A DNA stretch of 47,560 nucleotides from the IMG/VR virus record IMGVR_UViG_2630968533_000001. One strand, given 5' to 3'. Shown piece after piece: positions 2,247 through 45,441 of the stretch. This DNA comes from a virus (Duplodnaviria; Heunggongvirae; Uroviricota; Caudoviricetes). Made by a program: the position numbers and the translations under genes. The notes under the pieces were generated by a model. The model saw only the letters and a list, made by a program, of their open reading frames with translations, had not been told where the DNA came from and did not search any database. The number at the start of each line of letters is the position of its first letter. Position 1 is the first letter of the stretch.

Positions 2247-3416
2247 TTATGGTCTGCTCTTCTGTGCCAGCTTATCAGCACATGTTTTTATCAGATCCTG
2301 TAGTGTCCTGGCTGGCAGGTTTGCATCCAGTACGCTGAGTATGCTGTTGTGATCTGCTTGGTCGACTACTTTGCCTGTCGGTGGTAGTAGCTTGAGCTGA
2401 GGATTCAGGTTTTCGTCAAAGCTGATAAGTGCTCTGGCGTTTCTGAGCAGATCAAGAAGTAAGGCTGATATCACATTTTCCTGAGTCATTGCTGACAGAT
2501 TTAGCGCCGCTTTGGTTTTCCCTGTTGCCTTGTCAAACTCCTTGATTAGTTCCTTCCTGTAGTTCGGTTCCGTTAATAGCCGATTATGCTCTGTTGCCGC
2601 GCGGATAATCGTTTTTTCCTGGTACAGTCGTTTAGCCAGATCACGCTCGTACTGTGTTTTTAACACGCTGCTGATAGCGTTAAAGGCTTCAATGTAGGCC
2701 AGCTTGATATCTTTCACGCCTGGACCGTCGATACTTTCCATGAGCAAGGTAAATCCGTCTTTTGTCATGCGATAGATTGTTATTTCGCGGTCGCTTCCTT
2801 CCAGCGGTCGTTGCTCTTTAAAGAAATGACGTGCCGCAGCTGTGCGAGGAATGCGTAACGCATCGATGGCCATAACGATGGAATTGTTTGTGGTGCTGAA
2901 TGCCTGGGCAACATCGGCTGAGGTTGTGAGTGGCTCGTTGTTGCACACCTTAATGTAAAACATCGGTTTGGCGTTGAGCGTATCGACAACCTCACGAGCA
3001 TTGTTTGGCGAGACGGTTACGGTCGCGGCCGTTTGTGTGTTCTGGCTGAAATAGCAGTCTTCCAGCCGTTCGAACACATCCCAAGCCTGATCGGTTTCAA
3101 GCATTTTGGCGTGACGTGCAGCCCCGCGTTCTGTCCAGAGAATGAGGGAGCGGGCTTTCGGGGAAATTTGTAACCCTCTTAAAGATGGTTGCACATTTTG
3201 TGAGTGACTTAAAGTCACTCGCAAAGTTTTTAACTCATCGCCAGCCACTTTGAAAAAATGCTTTCCTTCAATAAAGCGGTTTGCGTTACGTGAGTAATTT
3301 TTTTTGATGTTATCAACGTCTGTGCCGTATAGCTTTGCCAGTAGTTCAGTAGTGATAACGGGGATCTGGTTATGCAGGATAGGCTGTAGGGTGTTAACGG
3401 TCGGAAGCGTTTTCAT
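2247..3416 (-). CDS. Phage antirepressor (N-terminal ORF6N-like and Rha-like domains)
   Basis: ORF track; N-terminal motif ITTELLAKLYGTDVDNIKKNYSRNANRFIEGKHFFKV typical of ORF6N antirepressors; central PLTTSADVAQAF segment Rha-like; start overlaps the stop of the upstream small ORF (ATGA). Confidence 0.65.
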   Translation of the reverse strand: MKTLPTVNTLQPILHNQIPVITTELLAKLYGTDVDNIKKNYSRNANRFIEGKHFFKVAGDELKTLRVTLSHSQNVQPSLRGLQISPKARSLILWTERGAARHAKMLETDQAWDVFERLEDCYFSQNTQTAATVTVSPNNAREVVDTLNAKPMFYIKVCNNEPLTTSADVAQAFSTTNNSIVMAIDALRIPRTAAARHFFKEQRPLEGSDREITIYRMTKDGFTLLMESIDGPGVKDIKLAYIEAFNAISSVLKTQYERDLAKRLYQEKTIIRAATEHNRLLTEPNYRKELIKEFDKATGKTKAALNLSAMTQENVISALLLDLLRNARALISFDENLNPQLKLLPPTGKVVDQADHNSILSVLDANLPARTLQDLIKTCADKLAQKSRP

Positions 3417-3604
3417 TTTGCACCTCCCATAACTACTTTGGTTACGAGGGAGATTTTTGCGTCAGAAACAGCGTTATCGTTGCTGGCGATGCGCATAGCT
3501 TCGCGCTCGATGATTTCAGCCAGGCGGAATTTATCGGCGTATGAGGCTTTCTTGAGAAGGATCTTTACGAGGTTGACGTAATAGTCATGGGGTAGGTTTG
3601 TCAT
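3413..3604 (-). CDS. Small protein (63 aa) translationally coupled to the antirepressor (icd-like position)
   Basis: ORF track; 4-nt overlap with the antirepressor start; SD-like AAGGGA upstream on the minus strand. Confidence 0.45.
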   Translation of the reverse strand: MTNLPHDYYVNLVKILLKKASYADKFRLAEIIEREAMRIASNDNAVSDAKISLVTKVVMGGAK

Positions 3605-3769
3605 TGTGATGATTCCCTTAAAGGTTAAGGATACTCACCACCGTCAGGTTCCAATCATTGGGTGGTGAGACGTGCAGGGTTGGAACTACCGGACACAATG
3701 ACGAACCGGCGAGTCTTACGACTCCCCCGCACGCCCCACCATAATTTGGGTGTAGCAGTGCTTTACGCA

Positions 3770-3869
3770 TAAAAAAACCGCTAACGCGGTATGCGCCATT
3801 GTGTCTACGGGGTTCCAATCCCGACCGTAGATTTTGCTACGGCTCGGAAAGTGTCCACCAATGGCGCAT
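3770..3869 (-). ncRNA. Candidate structured small RNA / leader element (c4-like hypothesis)
   Basis: On the minus strand an 11-bp terminal stem (3791-3801 with 3859-3869) encloses an inner hairpin ctacgg/ccgtag, followed by hairpin accgc-gtta-gcggt and a U7 run (3770-3790); loop sequence has a near-complement at about 3680-3695 in the downstream leader. Confidence 0.25.
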
Positions 3870-4360
3870 TCATGTCAATACGGCGGGATTTTAACAGAGA
3901 CAACCACATAGCGTGGGTTTATTGGTAGGCAGAAACAAAAAAACCGCCCTATTGAGGACGGTTCTTTCGTGCTGATCGGATTCGCGGTCCTTTCAGCATA
4001 ACGTCGTTGTATAAACAACCACGCAAGCACAAGCAGCAAGTTAATTTTACCCAAAAGGTAATAATAGTCCACTATTATGCTTCAAAAAATTGTGGTTCTT
4101 GTTGTGCCTGCAAACTCACAGATTGTGGGTAGGTTACTGATTTTGTGAAAATAAACGAGTTTTTTCGTTTAATTTCTTTCCTATTACTAATCTTAAAATA
4201 ATCGTAAAATACCTGTGGACCTTCCCGCCGATTCGCACCCGGGCACCGACTTTAGGGGAGGATTCTCCGTTGCCGTACATGCAAGCACAAGCAGCCGTGC
4301 TTGCTCTCGCGTTGTTTTCGTCGGTGGGGATGCCGTGAAACGGCCTGTAAGGGCCATACA

Positions 4361-4483
4361 ATGAAAAAATACTGTATGTGTATTTTTATCGTTGTTACTG
4401 GGGCTTTGTTTACGCCACATGGGGAGGGTTGGAAGATTACTGATAACGCTCTGAATGTGACGATAAACATTAGCAGCAAGTAG
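4361..4483 (+). CDS. Small hydrophobic ORF (40 aa, MKKYCMCIFIVVTGALF...), speculative
   Basis: In-frame ATG within ORF 4301-4483; hydrophobic N-terminus; followed by a strong terminator; no SD seen. Confidence 0.2.
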   Translation: MKKYCMCIFIVVTGALFTPHGEGWKITDNALNVTINISSK

Positions 4484-4487
4484 CGAT

Positions 4488-4512
4488 TAGGCCCCTTCGG
4501 GGGCCTTTTTTA
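4488..4512 (+). terminator. Rho-independent terminator (AGGCCCC-TTCG-GGGGCCT then T-run)
   Basis: Perfect GC-rich hairpin followed by TTTTTTAT. Confidence 0.55.
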
Positions 4513-5509: not shown

Positions 5510-5511
5510 GT

Positions 5512-5620
5512 ATTTGGTTATATAATTCTATAAATCTATATTTATAGAACGAGGTAAGCATAACCAACTTTTTGGCGGATGAAAAGCGTTTTATATAATT
5601 ATATAAATCTATAATCATGT
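5512..5620. repeat. Iterated AT-rich boxes upstream of parA (putative partition operator/centromere-like site)
   Basis: Two related boxes (5518-5549, 5589-5616) containing TATATAATT(A/C)TATA and AATCTATA; perfect 14-bp palindrome TATATAATTATATA at 5592-5605. Confidence 0.4.
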
Positions 5621-5644: not shown

Positions 5645-6019
5645 TCAGAGGTCAGCTATCGTTGATATCAGTTGATTTGCTAGCTGTCGCTGTTTACGTG
5701 AGAGGGTGAGAGCAGCTTCTGAGCGGTCGCTAAGAGGGGTGTTTTCATCAAGAATCATGAGGCATACAGAAATAATAGCCCTGTTATATGCCATCAATGG
5801 CTGGCACAGCTTCGATATCGCTGGCACATCGTATTGTAAGGCCGTTTTGAGGCAGACTTTTTGTTCTGATGCCAGATGAAGGATAGATTCTATCCAGTCG
5901 ATATCTTTCTCATTATCAATGATTTGGCATAACATACACTCAATCGCTATGTTCAACGCTTGGATTTCGATTCCAGCAGTGATCAGAGTTTCGTTTTTAT
6001 TGGCTGTATGTAATTCCAT
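5645..6019 (-). CDS. Hypothetical protein (124 aa) downstream of the repressor
   Basis: ORF track; no domain recognised; operator-like palindrome sits just upstream of its start. Confidence 0.5.
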   Translation of the reverse strand: MELHTANKNETLITAGIEIQALNIAIECMLCQIIDNEKDIDWIESILHLASEQKVCLKTALQYDVPAISKLCQPLMAYNRAIISVCLMILDENTPLSDRSEAALTLSRKQRQLANQLISTIADL

Positions 6020-6052
6020 GCGTAGCCTCTTTTATACTTTTACATGTTGTCA

Positions 6053-6071
6053 AAACCACAAAATGTGGTTT
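6053..6071. promoter_or_regulatory. Operator-like palindrome AACCACA-N3-TGTGGTT
   Basis: Perfect inverted repeat read directly; same half-site family as the palindromes in the cI/cro intergenic region. Confidence 0.35.
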
Positions 6072-6111
6072 TTTTGAGCGTAGAAATGCACGGCTTTCGC
6101 CGTGCTGTGTA

Positions 6112-6768
6112 TCATAACCAGTTGACAACACTAACTACGCGGCCAAGAACTTTATAACGCTTAAATTCCTCGTTATTCAGATGCTTAGTGTTCATTTCAG
6201 CATCCCTTTCGGTTGACAGCATAACAGCATTGTCACCCGGTATGACTCTACAGTGCCTCAAAACAACCAGGCCATTTCTGTCTTCAAGGGCATAGATCCC
6301 CTCATGAATCTCTGTATCGTCTGTATTAATCAGGACTTGGGAGCCAGGGGATATTGTTGGTGACATTAACTCATCGTTGCTCTGGAGAACTGACAGAGAC
6401 GATGGGTTGATGTTCTTGCTTCGTAGAATCTCCTGTTCTATCGCCAGCACTGGCTTTTCTCCGGCGTGCGATGCTATGTCATTTTTTATAGCTACAAGCC
6501 CAGGAATAACAGGAGCGTTAGTATTCTGGGGTGGGAACGGGTTATCTGTTAAGCACGCGATATAAGGCGCTGATGCTTTCAGGGCGTGCGCGATTTTCTT
6601 GATGGCAGGTATAGATGGTTGTCTTAATCCGGCCTCATAGTTCTGCAAGGTGCTTAAGCCTATTCCAGTGACTTGCTGGAGATCTCCGGCAGTCATGCCG
6701 GATTGTTTCCGTAGAGTCTGAATGCGCAGACCTATTTCTTTCTTGATGTTCTCGTCGTTGCTTTTCAT
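6112..6768 (-). CDS. cI-like repressor (N-terminal HTH plus C-terminal S24/LexA-like peptidase domain)
   Basis: ORF track; N-terminal HTH IGLRIQTLRKQSGMTAGDLQQVTGIGLSTLQNYEAG; C-terminal autocleavage-type domain; divergent from the cro-like gene. Confidence 0.8.
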   Translation of the reverse strand: MKSNDENIKKEIGLRIQTLRKQSGMTAGDLQQVTGIGLSTLQNYEAGLRQPSIPAIKKIAHALKASAPYIACLTDNPFPPQNTNAPVIPGLVAIKNDIASHAGEKPVLAIEQEILRSKNINPSSLSVLQSNDELMSPTISPGSQVLINTDDTEIHEGIYALEDRNGLVVLRHCRVIPGDNAVMLSTERDAEMNTKHLNNEEFKRYKVLGRVVSVVNWL

Positions 6769-6941
6769 GTCTCATCAATCGTGAATGGTGGGTTATTTAT
6801 ACATTACCACATTTAGTGGTTTTCACATGGTAAGACGAGAGGTGGACCACAAATAGAAGGTTATTTTTTGTTTCGCCCATTGAAAAACTCACGATATGTG
6901 GTTTTAATACCACATATCGTGGTTTAACTGGAGTTCGTTAA
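6769..6941. promoter_or_regulatory. Divergent repressor/cro promoter-operator region
   Basis: 12-bp perfect inverted repeat CACGATATGTGG/CCACATATCGTG at 6890-6921 and ACCAC-N5-GTGGT at 6806-6820 between the divergent genes. Confidence 0.5.
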
Positions 6942-7436
6942 ATGACCTTTCAGGAGTGGGTTGACGAAAATGGAGGCCAAATTGGTGTTGCCAGAAAGTT
7001 TGGCTTTACGTCATCACTGATTGGTGCCTGGTATCGCTTCGAGAGATTCCCTCGTGCGGATAACCTGACGCTGCTGGTGGCGTATTCGGAAGGCCGGATT
7101 AACGTCCAGCAATGGGCGGCAGATTTTGCCGAACGTCAGCGCCAGCGTAGCGATGGCACATCGGTTCGGCAGAACAAGATCAAAGGGAATCTCCCTGTTA
7201 ACTGCTTATCAAGGCTGAAAGCGGTTTTCTCTGAGCTGGGGATGCCTGCGGAGCGTTGCAATCTACGCGGTCCGCGATTCATTGCTCGCTGGAAACACTC
7301 ACACGTAACCGTTTCAGAGGTTCGTGATGCGATTACCGTGCTGGAGCTTAAGAATAAAGATTCCAGCGATATCGAGCTGATTCATAAGGAGATTAGCAAC
7401 GCCCGGCGTTCAGCACTTGGGAGGCTTGAGGAATGA
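6942..7436 (+). CDS. Cro/YdaS-like HTH regulator with C-terminal extension (164 aa)
   Basis: ORF track; N-terminus FQEWVDENGGQIGVARKFGFTSSLIGAW resembles Cro/YdaS-type HTH; first gene of the rightward early operon. Confidence 0.5.
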   Translation: MTFQEWVDENGGQIGVARKFGFTSSLIGAWYRFERFPRADNLTLLVAYSEGRINVQQWAADFAERQRQRSDGTSVRQNKIKGNLPVNCLSRLKAVFSELGMPAERCNLRGPRFIARWKHSHVTVSEVRDAITVLELKNKDSSDIELIHKEISNARRSALGRLEE

Positions 7437-8914: not shown

Positions 8915-9292
8915 GTGAGACGCGATCTGGATAGCTTGTTTGAGCTATGGGCGCTGTGGGTGCGCAATGGCTGCAACGCCCGTAGCGGTTTCGCGTCGAT
9001 GTTAGAAATGATGATGGTTACGCGCTGCCAGTTTACCGGAGGGGGCGGCGCACCAAATGACTCACTGGAAACCAGTATAGAGGGAGCGGTGACGGCCCTC
9101 ACGGTAGTTGATGAGACTGCGGCGCTGGTTGTCCGAATTGAATACGGGGCGTGGGAGATTCGGGGCCTCGACATAAATGCACCGCATATTGATAAAGCCC
9201 ACGCCCTTTCTCTTAGCCTCAGACAGTATCGCCGGAAGCTGGCAAAAGCCAGGGCGTATGTTGTCGACTATTTGAAAAAGCGAAGAGAGTAA
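8915..9292 (+). CDS. Hypothetical protein (125 aa)
   Basis: ORF track; N-terminal LFELWALWVRNG motif; family unresolved. Confidence 0.4.
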   Translation: MRRDLDSLFELWALWVRNGCNARSGFASMLEMMMVTRCQFTGGGGAPNDSLETSIEGAVTALTVVDETAALVVRIEYGAWEIRGLDINAPHIDKAHALSLSLRQYRRKLAKARAYVVDYLKKRRE

Positions 9293-13365: not shown

Positions 13366-13511
13366 ACATTGCTTTTTTATTGATCGATTAACCACGATAT
13401 GAAGGTTTTTTTATGGGGAAACCTTGTTTTAGGTGGTAACTGGGTGTAGTGTTTCATTTAACGTAGTAAAACTGCGTTAAGCGATTACCGCGTAATTTGT
13501 TGCTTTATGAA

Positions 13512-13542
13512 GCCCTGCCTTTTTCGGCGGGGCTTTTTTTTT
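13512..13542 (+). terminator. Intrinsic terminator immediately upstream of the holin gene (tR'-like position)
   Basis: 8-bp stem GCCCTGCC/GGCGGGGC (one G-U pair) followed by a T9 run, 14 bp before the holin start. Confidence 0.5.
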
Positions 13543-13555
13543 AACGAGGATTTCA

Positions 13556-15331: not shown

Positions 15332-15407
15332 GGCCCCTTAGCTCAGTGGTTAGAGCAGGCGACTCATAATCGCACGGTCATCGGTTCAAATCCGGTAGGG
15401 GCCACCA
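15332..15407 (+). tRNA. tRNA with CAT anticodon (tRNA-Met or lysidine-type tRNA-Ile2-like)
   Basis: Cloverleaf read by hand: acceptor GGCCCCT/AGGGGCC, D-arm GCTC/GAGC, anticodon loop CTCATAA (CAT at 15365-15367), T-arm ATCGG-TTCAAAT-CCGGT, encoded CCA; G1-C72 paired so not an initiator; 5' half resembles E. coli ileX as recalled. Confidence 0.85.
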
Positions 15408-18289: not shown

Positions 18290-18913
18290 ATGACAAAACA
18301 ACTTAATGTGGTTTCTTTACCACTTTCTGTGTTGATTGGTTATGAAAAGAACGCTCGCACACACTCCGTGGAGCAGGTAGATCAGATTGTTGCCAGCATA
18401 CAGGAGTACGGATGGACTAATCCGATCCTGATAGACGAGAACAACGTTGTAATTGCTGGTCATGGTCGAATTGCTGCGGCCACTCAGTTGGGGATGGATG
18501 ATGTTCCCTGCATTGTTCTGGCTGGGCTAACGGAGAATCAGAAGAAGGCATATCGTCTGGCCGACAACCGTATTCCGCTGAATGCTGGTTGGGATGAAGA
18601 GCTGTTAAGCGCGGAGCTTGCAGATCTTGCGGCCGATGATTTTGCTCTGGACTCAATTGGTTTTACTCAGCGCGAACTGGATAACTTATTGAGTGCGGCG
18701 GTCTACGATGACACAGAGGGTATGGATATCCCATTTGAGAAGGATGAGGCCAAATCAGGCGTAAAAGTTCAGTACCTGTCATTTGGAGGTCATAAAATCC
18801 CGGCAACGGATGAGGAAGCGGATCGTTTTGACTGCGCGGTGTCTCGTTATGTTGATGATAATGGCAGCTATATCGGATTTGTATCCGCATTGCTGGCTGG
18901 GGAGGTGTGCTAA
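18290..18913 (+). CDS. ParB/Srx-like N-terminal domain protein
   Basis: ORF track; ParB-like nuclease-domain pattern with AGHGRIAAA; paralogue of the gene at 21579. Confidence 0.7.
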   Translation: MTKQLNVVSLPLSVLIGYEKNARTHSVEQVDQIVASIQEYGWTNPILIDENNVVIAGHGRIAAATQLGMDDVPCIVLAGLTENQKKAYRLADNRIPLNAGWDEELLSAELADLAADDFALDSIGFTQRELDNLLSAAVYDDTEGMDIPFEKDEAKSGVKVQYLSFGGHKIPATDEEADRFDCAVSRYVDDNGSYIGFVSALLAGEVC

Positions 18914-29311: not shown

Positions 29312-29655
29312 TGAACTCCTTCAAAGAGGTTATAGCGCAAGATATTTCTGCAATATTCCTCAATGAAAAAGAGTTTGCCGATACATATAACATAGACGGC
29401 AAGGATATCCTTGCCGTTATTGATACAGACCTTATTCATGAGCGGAATAAACGCTCATATGCTGAGTTTGCAGAGGGAATAAATCAGGGGCAAATAATAT
29501 TATTTGTTTCAAGAAAAGATTTTCCTGTTCTCCCTGTCAAAGACCAGTCAATGAAAATCAACGGTAAAAATTATATTGTTGATGAAGTATCAGATAATGT
29601 TGGTGTATTGGAAATAACTCTCACTGTTAATACTAACAGAGGAATGCCGATTTGA
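29311..29655 (+). CDS. Putative head-tail connector/adaptor protein
   Basis: ORF track; position between head and tail modules. Confidence 0.4.
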   Translation: MNSFKEVIAQDISAIFLNEKEFADTYNIDGKDILAVIDTDLIHERNKRSYAEFAEGINQGQIILFVSRKDFPVLPVKDQSMKINGKNYIVDEVSDNVGVLEITLTVNTNRGMPI

Positions 29656-35878: not shown

Positions 35879-36869
35879 AACGCTTTTTGATGTTATATAT
35901 CAGAATGTAAATATTACCGCTCATATGTCACCTGATGTTTTGTCAATGTCTTATACAGATAATGAAGATGGTCAGGTCGATGATATTTCTATTATATTAA
36001 AAAATGATGATGGGAAATGGTCTGGAGACTGGACACCTAAAAAGGGTGATTTTATTGATTTGAGCTTTAAGCCTATAAATCAAATCGTCCTTGAGTGCGG
36101 GAAATTCCAGGTAGATGGCATAACTTGCTCTGGACCACCTTCTGTGGTTGAGGTAACTGCTGTTTCTGTTCCTGTTTCATCAGGCATTAGACGTGATTTA
36201 AAAAGTAATGCATGGGAAAAAACAACTCTTAAAGATATAGCAACTTCTATAGCTAAATTAGCTAACCTTGAACTGTTGTTTCTTATTGATGGTGATAGTA
36301 ATCCATATTATGCGCGTGAAGATCAAATGGAGGAAAGCGATTTAAAATTTCTCCATCGACTTTGCCAGGATGAAGGGTTGTCGTTAAAGGTCACTGATAG
36401 CCAATTAATAATATTTGCTCAAGAGATGTTTGAGCAAAAAGATCCTATCGCTACGCTTACGTTAGGTATTGATGAGATAATCAGATATAGCTTTAGCACA
36501 CAATCTACAGATTTGTATAAAAGTTGCACGTGCAAATATCGCGTACCTAAAAAAAGAAAGTCGCTTTCGTATACTTGGGTAGATCCATCCGTAGAAGAAG
36601 GGTCGAATCTTAAGATAAGAAAACTGGTAGCTAATTTAGATGAAGCAAAACGTAAGGCAAAGGCTGCTTTGCGGCTTAAAAATAGATATCAAAATACCGG
36701 ATCTTTAGTATTGGTTGGAGACACCAGATTGGTAGCTGGTGTAACTATAAATCTGGAGGGATTCGGTTCATTTTCTGGAAAATATCTTATATCGAAAGCT
36801 GTGCATTCAATTGGGACTAGTGGTTATACCACCTCGATTGATGTCCGAAGAGTAATTAATGGGTATTAA
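35868..36869 (+). CDS. Tail/baseplate hub protein (P2 gpD-like)
   Basis: ORF track; position after tape measure and X. Confidence 0.55.
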   Translation: MLRKTLFDVIYQNVNITAHMSPDVLSMSYTDNEDGQVDDISIILKNDDGKWSGDWTPKKGDFIDLSFKPINQIVLECGKFQVDGITCSGPPSVVEVTAVSVPVSSGIRRDLKSNAWEKTTLKDIATSIAKLANLELLFLIDGDSNPYYAREDQMEESDLKFLHRLCQDEGLSLKVTDSQLIIFAQEMFEQKDPIATLTLGIDEIIRYSFSTQSTDLYKSCTCKYRVPKKRKSLSYTWVDPSVEEGSNLKIRKLVANLDEAKRKAKAALRLKNRYQNTGSLVLVGDTRLVAGVTINLEGFGSFSGKYLISKAVHSIGTSGYTTSIDVRRVINGY

Positions 36870-39998: not shown

Positions 39999-42845
39999 GT
40001 GAGTAAATTATTATTTACGATGACTGACGCCGGGCGTAAGGCGCTGGTTAATGCCAACAAGACTGGAACAAATAAAGTTGAGATCGTTTCTGTTGGTTTA
40101 GGTAGTAGATATTATGCCACATCAACCACACAAACAAAAATAACAGATGAAATAAAGCGACTTACCACAATAGGAGGCAAAGTCGTTTCTCCTGATACCA
40201 TTCATGTAACTGCGAAGGATGATAGTAAAGATGAGTATGTTGTCCATACAATAGGTTTGTATACAAATAAAGGAACATTGTTTGCTGTATACTCGCAAGA
40301 ACAAGTAATAATAAATAAAGCATCTTCTACAATTGCTTTAATATCAAGTGATATAGCAATTAAAAATCTTGATACTAAAAACATTACATTTGGTGATGTT
40401 GAGTTTATTAACCCTCCCGCAACCGAAACTGTTGTTGGAGTAGCAAGATTTGCTAATGAACAAGAAATTGATGCAGGTACAGATGATTCCCTGGCTGTTT
40501 CAGCAAAGCGGCTTAAGCAAGCTATTGTAAAACATGAGCAATCACGTAATCATCCTGATGCAACTTTAACATCAAAAGGCATTGTTCAACTCAGTAATGC
40601 CACCAATAGCACGTCTGAAAAGCTCGCAGCGACGCCTAAGGCTGTTAAGGCTGCATATGACCTGGCTAACGCTAAATACACCGCACAGGACGCTACCACG
40701 GCGCGAAAAGGGATTGTTCAGCTCAGTAGTGCCACTAACAGTACGTCTGAAACGCAGGCGGCAACGCCAAAAGCGGTCAAGGCAGCAAATGACAACGCAA
40801 ATTCACGTCTGGCGAAAAATCAGAACGGTGCAGATATCCAGGATAAATCAGCTTTTCTGGACAATGTTGGCGTTACCAGCCTGACGTTTATGAAAAACAA
40901 TGGCGAAATGCCGCTTGATGCTGATCTGAATACGTTTGGTCCTGTTAAGGCTTATTCAGGTATCTGGTCTAAAGCAACATCCACCAACGCAACACTGGAG
41001 AAAAATTTCCCGGAAGATAATGCTGTCGGTGTGCTTGAGGTTTTTGCTGCCGGCAATTTTGCAGGTACGCAACGCTTTACCACGAGAGACGGCAATGTAT
41101 ACATGCGTAAACTCGCCAATAAGTGGAATGGCACTGATGGTCCGTGGGGCGTATGGCGTCACACTCAATCTGCTACCCGCCCTTTGAGTACGACTATAGA
41201 CCTGAATACGCTTGGAGCCGCCGAGCATCTTGGTTTATGGCGTAACAGTAGCTCAGCTATAGCTTCATATGAACGCAATTATCCAGAGGAAGGCGGCTTT
41301 GCTCAGGGGATGCTTGAGATCCTCGAAGGCGGAAATTATGGAAGAACGCAACGTTATACCACTCGCCGTGGAAATATGTATGTCCGCTGTCTTGCGGCAA
41401 GCTGGGATGCATCAAATCCGCAGTGGGAACCGTGGTTAAGAGTCGGTCATCAGTCAGAGAGTCGTTATTACGACGGTGATTTGAATGATGTAACCTCACC
41501 AGGTATTTACAGCGTTACAGGTAAAGCGACCAACGGTCCAATACTGGACGGAAACGGCGTGACAGTCCTCGGTATTCTGGAGGTGTTGAGGCGCTTTGAT
41601 GGTGTTAATGTATGGCAGCGTTATACAACTGCCGGAACAGGTACAACCCTTAAAGGCCGCACCTTTGAGCGCGTCTTTACCGGCAGCTCATGGAGCGAAT
41701 GGCGGGAAGTCTACACCTCGTATTCACTTCCCCTGAATCTGGGTATCGGCGGTGCTGTGGCAAAGCTCACCAGCCTGGACTGGCAGACCTACGATTTTGT
41801 GCCGGGCAGTCTGATAACCGTTCGGCTTGATAACATGACCAATATTCCCGACGGTATGGACTGGGGCGTCATTGATGGCAACCTGATAAACATCTCAGTC
41901 GGTCCGAGTGATGATTCTGGTTCGGGACGCTCAATGCATGTATGGCGCAGCACTGTAAGTAAAGCCAACTACCGCTTTTTTATGGTTCGCATTTCAGGAA
42001 ATCCGGGAAGCCGCACGATCACGACAAGACGTGTGCCAATTATCGACGAAGCTCAGACATGGATGGCGAAACAGACATTCAGCGGTGGTCTTTCAGGCGA
42101 ACTATCCGGCAATGCTGCTACAGCAACAAAGCTGAAAACGGCAAGGACAATTAACGGCGTAAAATTTGACGGCTCGGCAAATATTGAAGCGTTTCCGCCA
42201 GGTGTTCCGCTGCCGTGGCCATCAGATACGCCACCTGCAGGTTATGCAATCATGCTGGGGCAGACGTTTGATAAGGCAGCATATCCGAAACTGGCTATTG
42301 CCTATCCTTCTGGTGTTATTCCAGATATGCGCGGCTGGACAATCAAGGGCAAACCCGCCAGTGGTCGGGCCGTATTGTCTCAGGAACAGGATGGCATTAA
42401 ATCGCACACCCACAGTGCCAGCGCATCCAATACGGATTTGGGTACGAAAACCACATCGTCGTTTGATTACGGTACTAAATCAACGAATAACACAGGTGCA
42501 CATACCCATAATGTATCTGGTACTGCAAATAGTGCTGGCGCACATACTCATACCGTTCCATTAAGGAGACCAAACAGTGGCGGTATGAATTTCGACTGGC
42601 TGGATGGTTCATCAAGTGGCACGGTGGTGGGGAATGGAACTGTGCCTTCTTCTGGCGCACATACCCACTCAGTATCAGGTACCGCTACAAGTGCTGGGGC
42701 ACATGCACACACTGTTGGTATTGGCGCTCATACGCACTCTGTTGCGATTGGTTCACATGGACACACCATCACCGTTAACGCTGCTGGTAACGCGGAAAAC
42801 ACCGTTAAAAACATCGCATTTAATTATATTGTGAGGCTTGCATAA
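39999..42845 (+). CDS. Tail fibre protein (948 aa; GTG start)
   Basis: ORF track; duplicated collar motif [21 protein letters not shown]; His-rich C-terminal GAHTH repeats; followed by Tfa. Confidence 0.85.
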
Positions 42846-43462
42846 TGGCATTCAGAATGAGTGAACAATCACGTACCGTAAAAATTTATAACCTGCTGGC
42901 CGGAACTAATGAGTTTATTGGTGAAGGTGACGCATATATTCCACCTCATACAGGGCTGCCAGCTAATTCTACAGATATCGCCCCACCGGAAATTCCTGCT
43001 GGCTTTGTGGCAGTTTTTAACAGTGAAAATGAATCGTGGAATATTGTTGAAGACCATCGTGGTAAAACGGTCTATGACGTGGCGTCGGGGGACGCATTGT
43101 TTATTTCTGAACTCGGACCGCTACCAGAGAATGTCACCTGGTTGTCGCCAGCAGGGGAGTATCAGAAGTGGGACGGCGTATCCTGGGTGAATGATGAGGA
43201 AGCAGAAAAACTGTTTCGGATACGGGAAGCGGAAGAGAAAAAGGCAAGGTTGATCCAGGAAGCAACAGATAACATCGCAATTCTGCAGGATGCAGTTAAT
43301 CTTGAAATAGCAACAAACGAGGAAAATTCACAACTGGATTCCTGGAGAAAATACAGAGTATTAGTGAGTAGAATTGACACCAGTACAGCTCCGGATATCG
43401 TATGGCCAGAGCTGATGAATCAGGGTTATGTTCGGGAGGACGAGCAGATAACTTCAGACTGA
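42845..43462 (+). CDS. Tail fibre assembly protein (Tfa)
   Basis: ORF track; 205 aa immediately after the fibre gene. Confidence 0.75.
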
Positions 43463-43989
43463 AATTTAGTGATGAATGTTGAATCATCAGGAATATCATG
43501 CAATACCAATGCATGAGCACCTATTGTGACATTGTTTCCTATACGCACTTTGCCACCAAGAATGGTGGCATTACAACCAATGGTCACATTATGCCCTATA
43601 ACAATATCCATATCATTAAATTCCCCGCGAAGTCCAATAGTTACTCCGGGCTTAATTGAACAATTTTCACCGATTGTTACTTTGTGACCGATAACAACAC
43701 TGTTGAGATAAGAAATATCAAAGCCTTTCCCTATATTTACAGTTAAAGGGACTGTTACATTATATTTATCAAGAATGAAACGTTCTATTTTTCCCGCAAT
43801 CTTCCGACAGTATCCGCCTTTATCAAAAAGGTATTTGGCTATGCGCCACCAAAATAAATAACGAACCCTTCTATGTTTTATTGCGCGAACAATTGCCTTT
43901 CGCCAGGAGAAAGGACGCTCGCTACCGATTACTTCATAGTGAATACAGTCTTTAAGTTCATTAATATTCATATCTTTATTATTCAGCAT
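43426..43989 (-). CDS. Hexapeptide-repeat (left-handed beta-helix) acetyltransferase, CysE/WcaB-like
   Basis: ORF track; repeated [LIV]-G-x-x-x-x-I-G hexapeptides ([49 protein letters not shown]); convergent, 3' end overlaps Tfa by about 37 nt; AT-rich. Confidence 0.75.
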
Positions 43990-44469
43990 AAGATAATCAT
44001 GTGACCAATTATTGTAATAATTTTAATGGTATGTTTCTACTGGCTATCCAGCGTGTCTGATACCCAGTAACAAATCGTTAACACAGGTGCAATCAAATGG
44101 TGAGTGTTAAGACTGGCCACTTATTACCAGGTATGAGGGTATGAGTGGCCAGCATTAAATCAGAACAGCCCTTTAACTGAACTGGCCGCGCTGTTAAGGG
44201 ATGATGTCACCTTATCTTTGAAGCCGGACAGCATATTGCTGAACGATGAGTTTACCGCAGGTTTCTGGCTGGGAATCATTGACTGGAGTTAGGCCAGTAG
44301 TATGATGCTCGCAAAACGAGATCCAATTTAGATCCTTTTACTGGTGGATTATCGTTCGATCAGTGAGAGACTTCGTGCATGACCGAAAGTGTTGTGGTAG
44401 AGTTCTCTTAAAACCACGTAACGTGGTTATGATTGTGGGTGTCTGGTTGGAAAGTGACCAGATATGGAA

Positions 44470-44590
44470 ACAAAAAGCCCGCAGATAAATCTGCGGGCTT
44501 CTTGCGACATCCACGGAAAACCAACAATTAACCATGGGCGCCTCGACAACTCCCATTATACGTTGGTTTTCCGTGGACGCAAGAGCGAAC
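44470..44590 (-). ncRNA. CopA-like antisense RNA region (copy-control hairpins in the repA leader)
   Basis: On the minus strand: long stem-loop (44510-44577, arms TCCACGGAAAACCAAC / GTTGGTTTTCCGTGGA) followed by hairpin GCCCGCAG-ATTTA-CTGCGGGC and U-run (44471-44499), the architecture of IncFII CopA antisense RNAs. Confidence 0.45.
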
Positions 44591-44592
44591 AT

Positions 44593-45441
44593 ATGGATAG
44601 ACCAATGCCGTCTCTACGTTCAGCTTACGTTTGTAATTTGTCGCCGGAGTTCCAGCCTCCAAAGCACCATACGCACAAGCTGCCGCTGGTGTTATCTGAT
44701 GCTTTACAGCGCATTAATGGGCGTGATCTTACGTGTGAGGTTGCGTTCTACGTTAATCAACCGTCAGAGCGGAAGCGCCGGATAAACGAGCATCGTCGTC
44801 GGGCGATTAATGCTGTGATCGCTGCGATTTTGCACCATGTAAACATCATTTCTAAGCGGGTTCTGGCCAGTGCTGAGGCGTTGGCTGATTTTTGCGGCCT
44901 GTCTACCGTATCCGAAGCTGGGAACAAGTCTATAACACGCTGTACAAGGGCGTTGTCGCAACTGAAAGCGTTAGGTTTTATTGATTATGAACGTCGCTGG
45001 GATCGGGTGAATAAACAGTATTGGCCAGCGAAAATAGAGATTCGTGATCAACTGCTGGAAACCGTTGGTATTACTGAACAAGCATGGAGACGTGCGGTTA
45101 GCCAGAAACTTAATTACTTCAATGCGAAGAATAGCGAACGGCTTAAAAAAGCGATAACGGAGGCTGATTATAAGCGTATTGTTATTCAGGAGCAGATGGA
45201 GAATGTATGGCGTCAGAGGAAGACGGCCAGAGAGATAAAGGCAAAACAGAAAGCAGCGGAGAGAGCTGCGCGTCTTGTTCGGGAAAAGGGAGAGGCCGAA
45301 CTTCGTCATCAAATCACTAGAGAGGTTAGCCAGGAATTTGCTGATGGCATGTATCCTGGAGCTGACCTTGCATATTTACGATCCCTCGTTGAGCAGCGTT
45401 ATAACAGGTTAAGAAAGACCTGGAAATCACTCCAACATTAA
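44593..45441 (+). CDS. repA: Replication initiator RepA (IncFII RepA1-like)
   Basis: ORF track ORF 44464-45441; core CGLSTVSEAGNKSITRCTRALSQLKALGFIDYE recalled as close to R100/R1 RepA1; start placed at ATG 44593 to match the ~285-aa length of RepA1. Confidence 0.75.
   Translation: MDRPMPSLRSAYVCNLSPEFQPPKHHTHKLPLVLSDALQRINGRDLTCEVAFYVNQPSERKRRINEHRRRAINAVIAAILHHVNIISKRVLASAEALADFCGLSTVSEAGNKSITRCTRALSQLKALGFIDYERRWDRVNKQYWPAKIEIRDQLLETVGITEQAWRRAVSQKLNYFNAKNSERLKKAITEADYKRIVIQEQMENVWRQRKTAREIKAKQKAAERAARLVREKGEAELRHQITREVSQEFADGMYPGADLAYLRSLVEQRYNRLRKTWKSLQH

Follow-up and report, generated by a model that had tools for sequence, protein, structure and literature searches.

We analysed the lysogeny switch of the virus record IMGVR_UViG_2630968533_000001, a stretch of 47,560 nucleotides that we refer to as the window. 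Inverted repeats of the form ACCAC-N5-GTGGT recur in this DNA and are, with a probability of roughly 80%, the operators of a 218-residue lambda-type two-domain repressor that would also control replication and anti-immunity. From its near-identity to plasmid records, we take the window to be a complete Escherichia coli phage-plasmid, because its switch region is almost identical to that of 46–52-kb plasmids and of phages; the related records are circular. The sequence-only reading from which we started had placed a family of operators around a gene for a cI-like repressor. Comparative evidence, namely the fold of the repressor and the position, spacing and half-site conservation of the sites, strongly supports that proposal. 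We computed the sites, their enrichment, positions and phylogenetic conservation, the repressor fold and the invariance of its helix-turn-helix (HTH); from these we infer the identity of the binding protein, the promoter assignments and the direction of the regulatory effects.

The pattern ACCACNNNNNGTGGT has five exact matches in the window against 0.03 expected; none of 100 shuffled sequences reached five. With one mismatch allowed, there are nine matches against 0.82 expected. A position weight matrix built from the sites of nine lineages, the window's own sites being in the training set, gives six window sites scores of 22–31.5 bits, where the null maximum averages 8.4 bits with a 95th percentile of 15.3. 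The 21-bp consensus from all lineages is aaaACCAC-R-NNN-Y-GTGGTttt. The strong sites are all intergenic and lie beside a gene start or a candidate promoter: that of the early operon, the repressor gene, a gene for a 124-residue protein, the replication gene repA or the antirepressor (ant) operon. All three repeat sequences reported earlier are found where the sequence-only reading had put them. Its set was incomplete: it missed a full site at 6888–6902, a half-operator at 6846–6860 and the sites beyond its range, with the family extending to the promoters of repA and of the antirepressor operon. Several further matches were rejected. The exact match at 36134 falls within a tail gene; its flanks are poor, the E. 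coli ATCC 25922 plasmid carries it in mutated form and Salmonella does not have it. Two one-mismatch sites at 18298 and 18319 are spaced 21 bp where a ParB-like gene begins; they degenerate in relatives, and coding sequence accounts for them. A tail-fibre site at 41358 lies within coding sequence and reaches a score of only 6.4, and the 11.8 of the site at 4115 falls short of the null maximum's 95th percentile.

To follow the sites through evolution we compared nine lineages with repressors that are 60–66% identical; loci came from Citrobacter, Klebsiella aerogenes, Yokenella, Salmonella and one metagenome, and a Salmonella Weltevreden plasmid and the ATCC 25922 plasmid complete the set. The relatives' loci were reached via homologous proteins and then the contigs encoding them; L numbers below denote individual records. 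The motifs are present in every relative examined, at the same places in all nine lineages. In the alignment of the region between the repressor and early genes, half-site columns are 97% identical, compared with 59% for the central 5 bp and 65% for all other columns (Mann–Whitney p ~1e-7). Within the E. coli lineage, differences in the sites are confined to the central bases. The spacing of the two promoter-proximal sites, OR2 and OR1, is exactly 21 bp in nine of nine lineages. From O3, the site nearest the repressor gene, to an asymmetric half-operator the centres are 40–42 bp apart, and from there to OR2 41–42 bp; these distances are whole numbers of helical turns. O3 itself stays 45–47 bp before the repressor ATG. 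The deviations from consensus are conserved and specific to the class of site (C at position 1 of OR2, A at position 10 of O3), a pattern that fits operators of graded affinity.

The sites and genes of the switch region are the following.

5645–6019, minus strand: gene for the 124-aa protein downstream of OD; phrog_7632, unknown function, syntenic in all lineages.
6055–6069, no strand assigned: OD, ACCACAAAATGTGGT, exact match, the best fit to the consensus and the top matrix score (31.5).
6088–6105, minus strand: terminator hairpin of the repressor gene, GCACGGC-N4-GCCGTGC, from the alignment of nine lineages.
6112–6768, minus strand: repressor gene, 218 aa, N-terminal HTH_3 and LexA/S24-like C-terminal domain.
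6806–6820, no strand assigned: O3, ACCACATTTAGTGGT, exact match, repressor-proximal, centred 45 bp upstream of the repressor ATG.
6846–6860, plus strand: asymmetric half-operator, ACCACAAATAGAAGG (ACCAC-N5-GRAGG), its centre 40 bp from that of O3 and 42 bp from that of OR2.
6880–6908, plus strand: candidate promoter PR, read from the sequence, with -35 TTGAAA (6880–6885), a 17-bp spacer and -10 TTTAAT (6903–6908).
6888–6902, no strand assigned: OR2, CTCACGATATGTGGT, matrix score 26.9, in the spacer of candidate PR.
6909–6923, no strand assigned: OR1, ACCACATATCGTGGT, exact match, conserved in nine lineages.
6942–7436, plus strand: first rightward gene, 164 aa, with a possible Cro/YdaS-like HTH in residues 1–70 and a 95-aa extension.

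The 173-bp intergenic region between the repressor and early genes thus holds three full sites and one half-operator. OR1 is centred 26 bp before the ATG of the 164-aa gene, which starts 19 bp after the site. The pair OR2–OR1 had been described as one inverted repeat with 12-bp arms, CACGATATGTGG/CCACATATCGTG at 6890–6921. The repeat is exact, and a repeat search there gives 16-nt arms that are 94% complementary. It does not stand as a single unit but consists of two 15-bp operators, whose central bases are the same in the window lineage by happenstance; the long repeat is already broken in the ATCC 25922 variant and in Salmonella, with the half-sites kept. OR2 is present in nine of nine lineages, always with a weakened left half (CCCAC or CTCAC). 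Among possible rightward promoters, PR alone looks plausible. The -35 block, ATTGA(A/T)A, is kept in eight of nine lineages and the AT-rich hexamer between OR2 and OR1 is conserved; a consensus scanner passed PR over, as its -10 has no A at position 2. OR1 would cover about -6 to +9 of PR. We envisage that the repressor binds as a dimer, with one HTH per 5-bp half-site and the half-sites one helical turn apart, and that two cooperatively bound dimers, at OR2 in the spacer and at OR1 on the start site, would occlude PR and shut the lytic/early operon.

On the repressor side, the stretches 6053–6071 and 6806–6820 had been called perfect palindromes; both are in fact interrupted inverted repeats. 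The former, AAACCACAAAATGTGGTTT, consists of two perfect 8-bp arms and a 3-bp centre without self-complementarity (the arms reach 9 bp at 6052–6072, AAAACCACA-AAA-TGTGGTTTT). In O3, pairing is limited to the 5-bp arms ACCAC/GTGGT, positions 6 and 10 being A and A; the site is kept in nine of nine lineages, always with A at position 10. O3 probably overlaps the repressor's own promoter, falling in the spacer of a possible leftward promoter with a candidate -10 at TATAAA (6801 to 6796), and autoregulation is therefore its most likely role. We discarded an alternative repressor promoter with -10 TAACCT (6863 to 6858), which would place OR2 at -44, since L015–L018 do not keep the hexamer. The site that the sequence-only reading had noted ahead of the 124-aa gene is OD, 35 nt upstream of the ATG at 6019 on the minus strand and downstream of the repressor-gene terminator; the T-run following that hairpin is weak in the window and T6–7 in most relatives. 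OD is at the same place in nine of nine lineages, with only its central bases varying. Relative to a weak extended -10 candidate, TGTAAAAGT (6044 to 6036, minus strand), it would span roughly -40 to -26, and it may block the -35 region of this leftward promoter of the 124-aa gene. Equally possibly, OD may serve as a distant cooperative partner of the OR sites.

The repressor has a clear DNA-binding domain (HTH_3: Pfam E 4.5e-11, 43 bits, cutoff 23), a Peptidase_S24 match that stays below the Pfam cutoff (0.0018, 18.4 bits, cutoff 23.3) and a PHROG match annotated 'transcriptional repressor'. The AlphaFold2 model has a mean predicted local distance difference test score (pLDDT) of 74, rising above 85 in the HTH. 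Searched with Foldseek, it matches best a lambda-186 hybrid repressor, LexA, 186 CI and lambda cI; its N-terminal part matches P22 c2, SinR and C.BclI, and its C-terminal half the LexA C-domain (template modelling score 0.70), UmuD' and the lambda cI C-terminal domain, at fold level only. No sequence similarity to characterised repressors was detected, and the best phage matches outside the family are Vibrio phage repressors at 26–30% identity. Residues 9–49, which include the HTH, are invariant in the family; the linker and the C-terminal domain diverge. This invariance parallels that of the half-sites, and therefore the whole known family appears to share one DNA specificity. The immunity specificity proposed from the window alone is accordingly a property of the family as a whole, and a heteroimmune sibling with the same repA and a different repressor was sought among plasmids without success. 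The prediction that follows from shared specificity is that the whole family is homoimmune.

The C-terminal domain seems to have lost its catalytic residues. In a tentative MAFFT alignment, the repressor's D-E-L-M aligns with the G-x-S-M of LexA, cI and UmuD (Leu134 is invariant); the position of the catalytic Ser is occupied by an invariant Leu (or Glu) and that of the Lys by the invariant Arg171. A comparison with LexA using hhalign gave no usable alignment. A conserved Ala–Gly cleavage site was sought in the repressor family, and none is present. With the Ser/Lys dyad seemingly missing, RecA-stimulated self-cleavage is unlikely. If the loss of the dyad holds, induction would probably proceed via the antirepressor rather than by RecA-mediated cleavage.

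Two sites lie outside the switch region, and the first is found at the replication gene.

44413–44427, no strand assigned: Orep, ACCACGTAACGTGGT, exact match, score 29.9, about 180 bp upstream of repA.
44593–45441, plus strand: repA, IncFII-type replication initiator, annotated repA and PF02387 (IncFII_repA) in relatives.

Orep lies within a 17-bp perfect palindrome, AACCACGTAACGTGGTT, and is at the same place in all six lineages whose repA region was available. It would sit just downstream of a conserved extended -10 candidate (TGnTAGAGT, 44395–44403), abutting a second candidate, TATGAT (44428–44433). The start of repA is 44593 or 44605; the phrog_7060 match begins at residue 53, and the first in-frame ATG, at 44464, is probably not used. 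On the minus strand of the leader (44470–44585) we found a strongly structured candidate antisense RNA, with two stem-loops and ending in a terminator (-69 kcal/mol, z = -10.7). A scan for Rfam CopA (RF00042) gave no hit at E <= 1; by position and by analogy, this antisense RNA may nevertheless be a CopA-like copy-number controller. No copB was identified upstream of repA in the open reading frame (ORF) lists, which were all that was inspected. With Orep on the core repA promoter, a repressor level that rises with copy number would damp transcription of the initiator, and loss of the repressor would boost replication. Relatives carry a gene for a resolvase-family DNA invertase directly upstream of repA on the same strand. 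The window is without it: in its place (43426–44400) there is an opposite-strand ORF for a hexapeptide-repeat, acetyltransferase-like protein, followed by ~400 bp of non-coding DNA.

The second distant site precedes the anti-immunity operon.

3903–3917, no strand assigned: Oant, ACCACATAGCGTGGG, one mismatch, score 22.4, 60 bp upstream of isrK (minus strand).
2247–3843, minus strand: anti-immunity operon, with an isrK-like RNA (3843 to 3771), a C4 antisense RNA (3746 to 3658) and a 63-aa ORF (3604 to 3413).
3416 to 2247, minus strand: antirepressor gene, with ORF6N and Rha domains (Pfam, PHROG).

Both RNAs exceed their Rfam gathering scores (RF01695 C4, 77.8 bits against 45; RF01394 isrK, 67.7 bits against 50). 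The isrK–C4–ant arrangement is also found in relatives and resembles P1 immI and N15 immA. Of the seven lineages for which this region was available, four (L003, L015, L017 and L018) have a site 60 bp from isrK. Oant would cover the -35 region of an extended -10 promoter, TGTTAAAAT (3896 to 3888; TGGTAGATT in L015–L018). A second promoter candidate, TTGACA-17-GACACT, precedes isrK downstream of the Oant promoter. Bound at the upstream one of these two tandem promoters, the repressor would keep the antirepressor silent in the lysogen. A LexA box was sought near the ant operon and not found; the one match lies in coding sequence at 29624 and is no more than chance would give.

Several observations weigh against assigning the sites to the repressor. 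The promoters are weak matches, with none called by the consensus scanner at PR, repA or OD, and the repressor's own promoter could not be placed with confidence. The weight matrix was trained partly on the window's own sites. Oant is missing in L013 and L002. A 32-kb plasmid without the repressor gene, recovered as a plasmid, still carries Orep and Oant; control of repA by the repressor therefore has to be modulatory and not essential. Finally, the 164-aa protein of the rightward operon is as conserved as the repressor, its N-terminal 60 residues being nearly invariant, and could be the binder or a second binder.

In lambda-type switches, both the repressor and the first rightward protein share the operators. 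Binding shared by the 164-aa protein and the repressor is thus compatible with our best explanation. That the 164-aa protein is the sole binder of the sites is, in our estimate and given their positions, improbable. Its gene begins right after OR1, and in a profile search its residues 1–70 are matched by stand-alone proteins of 70–82 residues that have sub-threshold hits to YdaS_toxin, P22_Cro and HTH families. The protein is found in this plasmid family alone, is no recognised member of an HTH family at Pfam thresholds and gives a poor AlphaFold2 model (pLDDT 56), too poor for a structure search. The 'cro-like' label of the sequence-only reading fits only the first ~70 residues, where the resemblance is of Cro/YdaS type and below family thresholds; as a whole, the protein is atypical. 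A repressor that maintains lysogeny accounts better than a lytic-phase protein for sites next to repA, ahead of the ant operon and downstream of the repressor gene. The OL sites that precede repA in phage PY54 are not targets of Cro (PMC4488713).

We consider it very unlikely that the sites belong to another DNA-binding protein of plasmid or host, such as a KorA/KorB-style regulator, a partition protein, or a ParB/Srx or small HTH protein; the sites would then be close to the repressor gene only incidentally. KorA/KorB regulons typically have palindromes scattered over replication and maintenance promoters, and the plasmid encodes several other HTH proteins and ParB/Srx-domain proteins. Against this, four or five of the sites are gathered at the repressor gene and the early promoter divergent from it, the classical position of immunity operators, and the partition locus has different repeats of its own (5510–5618). 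The motif travels with the plasmid across five genera, which makes a host factor unlikely.

Barely credible is a role as RNA hairpins, with 6890–6921 a minus-strand terminator and 6052–6072 a second terminator after the repressor gene: A-runs and T-runs do flank the sites, and the scanner lists 6921 to 6890 as terminator-like (13 pairs, then AGTTTTTCAA), but the long hairpin does not persist across lineages (L003, L002 and others have different central bases, the 5-bp half-sites alone being kept), the stem of O3 would be only 5 bp, OR2 keeps a conserved base that would break the stem, the phasing of 21 and ~41 bp is a property of DNA binding, and the half-sites are invariant rather than co-varying, whereas the terminator stem of the repA-leader RNA does show a compensatory A–T to G–C change between lineages. 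The class-specific conserved deviations are hard to reconcile with chance or with RNA hairpins, and the conservation pattern as a whole effectively excludes both.

The half-operator between O3 and OR2 has a counterpart elsewhere in the plasmid.

13391–13405, plus strand: second copy of the asymmetric motif, ACCACGATATGAAGG, in a promoter–leader–terminator unit upstream of the holin gene (13556).

In every lineage, each plasmid has exactly two copies of the pattern ACCAC-N5-G(A/G)AGG, both on one strand. The copy in the switch region is conserved in nine of nine lineages, its ACCAC/GAAGG columns being 96% identical and its GAAGG half kept as well as a true half-site; at the 13391 position there is exactly one copy in all eight lineages with data. 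The asymmetric site may act as a weak operator with the support of cooperative binding, or a second protein may recognise it. Around its second copy, the block 13370–13545 is highly conserved and contains TTGAYC, the motif, a leader with the hairpin AACGTAG-TAAAA-CTGCGTT and a strong terminator (13509–13536). Its layout suggests a late operon under antitermination control. We identified no gene for an antiterminator; a 125-aa protein (8915–9292) was considered as antiterminator Q and rejected, with no support from Pfam or an annotated PHROG. A bolder reading, which we consider less likely than not, is that a single prophage repressor would have taken over the role of CopB at an IncFII-type replicon, so that lysogeny, anti-immunity and copy number are set together, and that ACCAC-N5-GAAGG would be a hybrid site, with one half for the repressor and the other for a second factor (the 164-aa protein or a late regulator), that wires the switch directly to the late genes.

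The predicted regulon combines features known separately from lambda, N15, P1 and IncFII plasmids. As in lambda, 434 and P22, a two-domain repressor with an XRE-type HTH and a LexA/S24-like C-terminal domain is divergently transcribed from the early genes; related palindromic operators lie between them and overlap the inferred early promoter, and two adjacent operators are two helical turns apart, with graded deviations from the consensus. To our knowledge, the half-site ACCAC is unlike any known operator. The arrangement also differs: here two contiguous sites are followed by the half-operator and a fourth site at ~41-bp steps, whereas there three sites are contiguous. In addition, the C-terminal domain here seems to be without the Ser/Lys dyad, the 'cro' position is taken by the 164-aa protein, and the element is a plasmid with further operators at the replication and antirepressor promoters.

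In N15, the prophage repressor CB recognises three OR sites plus two more at the promoter of repA, and through its control of copy number immunity and copy number are linked (PMC4488713). The operator at the repA promoter gives our element a likeness to the CB systems of N15 and phiKO2, here at the level of sequence. In contrast, N15 is linear and has a telomere resolvase, a primase-type RepA and two OL sites, whereas this element is circular, with an IncFII-type RepA, one operator and an antisense-RNA-like leader. The virion type also differs, the tail here being contractile. No N15-type phage records were among the matches to the region or the repressor; the repressors were not compared directly for homology.

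C1 of P1 binds dispersed operators, and c4 RNA controls Ant (PMC8546580). Like P1, our element is a plasmid prophage with a primary repressor, dispersed operators and an antirepressor operon preceded by a C4 antisense RNA (RF01695). In immI of P1, the C1-controlled promoter P51a/Op51 is paired with the constitutive P51b. The tandem promoters ahead of isrK, the upstream one with a predicted operator of the primary repressor, resemble this layout. The operators themselves differ, those of P1 being asymmetric 17-mers (ATTGCTCTAATAAATTT) and C1 not being of XRE/S24 type, whereas here the sites are palindromic and the repressor has a lambda-like HTH_3/S24-like architecture.

With the IncFII plasmids R1 and R100, the element shares an IncFII-family RepA and, on the opposite strand of the leader, an antisense-RNA-like double stem-loop with a terminator. 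In the IncFII circuit, CopB senses copy number through a repressor site on the repA promoter and represses repA. Here, in contrast, the site matches the operator of a phage repressor, and the antisense element is without an Rfam CopA match.

The plasmid family to which the window belongs is widespread. The 1.9 kb around the switch are 99–100% identical to ~60 non-mobilizable E. coli plasmids of 46–52 kb, including the 48.5-kb plasmid of the quality-control strain ATCC 25922; one plasmid, of 47,558 bp, is 100% identical over this region, and the Yersinia pestis phages vB_YpM_39, 41 and 44 are 99% identical there. The family comprises ~60 plasmids in PLSDB and is carried by 70 of 5,426 complete E. 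coli genomes; other hosts are Salmonella, Citrobacter, Klebsiella and Yokenella, besides the phages isolated on Y. pestis. The repressor family is small, with 13 clusters at 90% identity. Gene content includes structural genes for a contractile tail, the IncFII-type repA, a ParA partition gene, a toxin–antitoxin pair, the isrK–C4–ant operon and the divergent pair of repressor and early genes.

In the phage-plasmid typing scheme that we examined, the family is absent, and among the literature on the family, the ATCC 25922 plasmid and the three Y. pestis phages we found no study of regulation. That a repressor acts through palindromic operators is a textbook principle; the unstudied part is the regulation of this family. 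The operator consensus and the six-site regulon provide an experimental handle in ATCC 25922, and they offer a model open to testing, with the immunity repressor tuning both an IncFII-type replicon and an RNA-controlled antirepressor as well.

The genes repA and repressor co-occur in the same ~60 plasmids, and there is one deletion derivative besides. This natural derivative, pCREC-544_3 (L020, NZ_CP024829.1, 32,182 bp), is without the repressor, early genes, ParA and lysis genes, and retains the structural genes and repA with intact Orep (7200–7214) as well as Oant (324–338).

Three further elements of the window were noted. Between the 124-aa gene and parA, at 5510–5618, an AT-rich repeat of 28 bp (TTATATAATTNTATAAATCTATA...) occurs two to three times; it may be a partition site or an operator of the ParA operon, and it is unrelated to the ACCAC motif. 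A full-length match to the ryfA RNA (plus strand; 141.8 bits against a gathering score of 80) lies at 4215–4511, with the ant operon on one side and the partition genes on the other, and copies are also found in L017 and L018. A tRNA-Met gene (anticodon CAT) is present at 15332–15407, and relatives carry one too.

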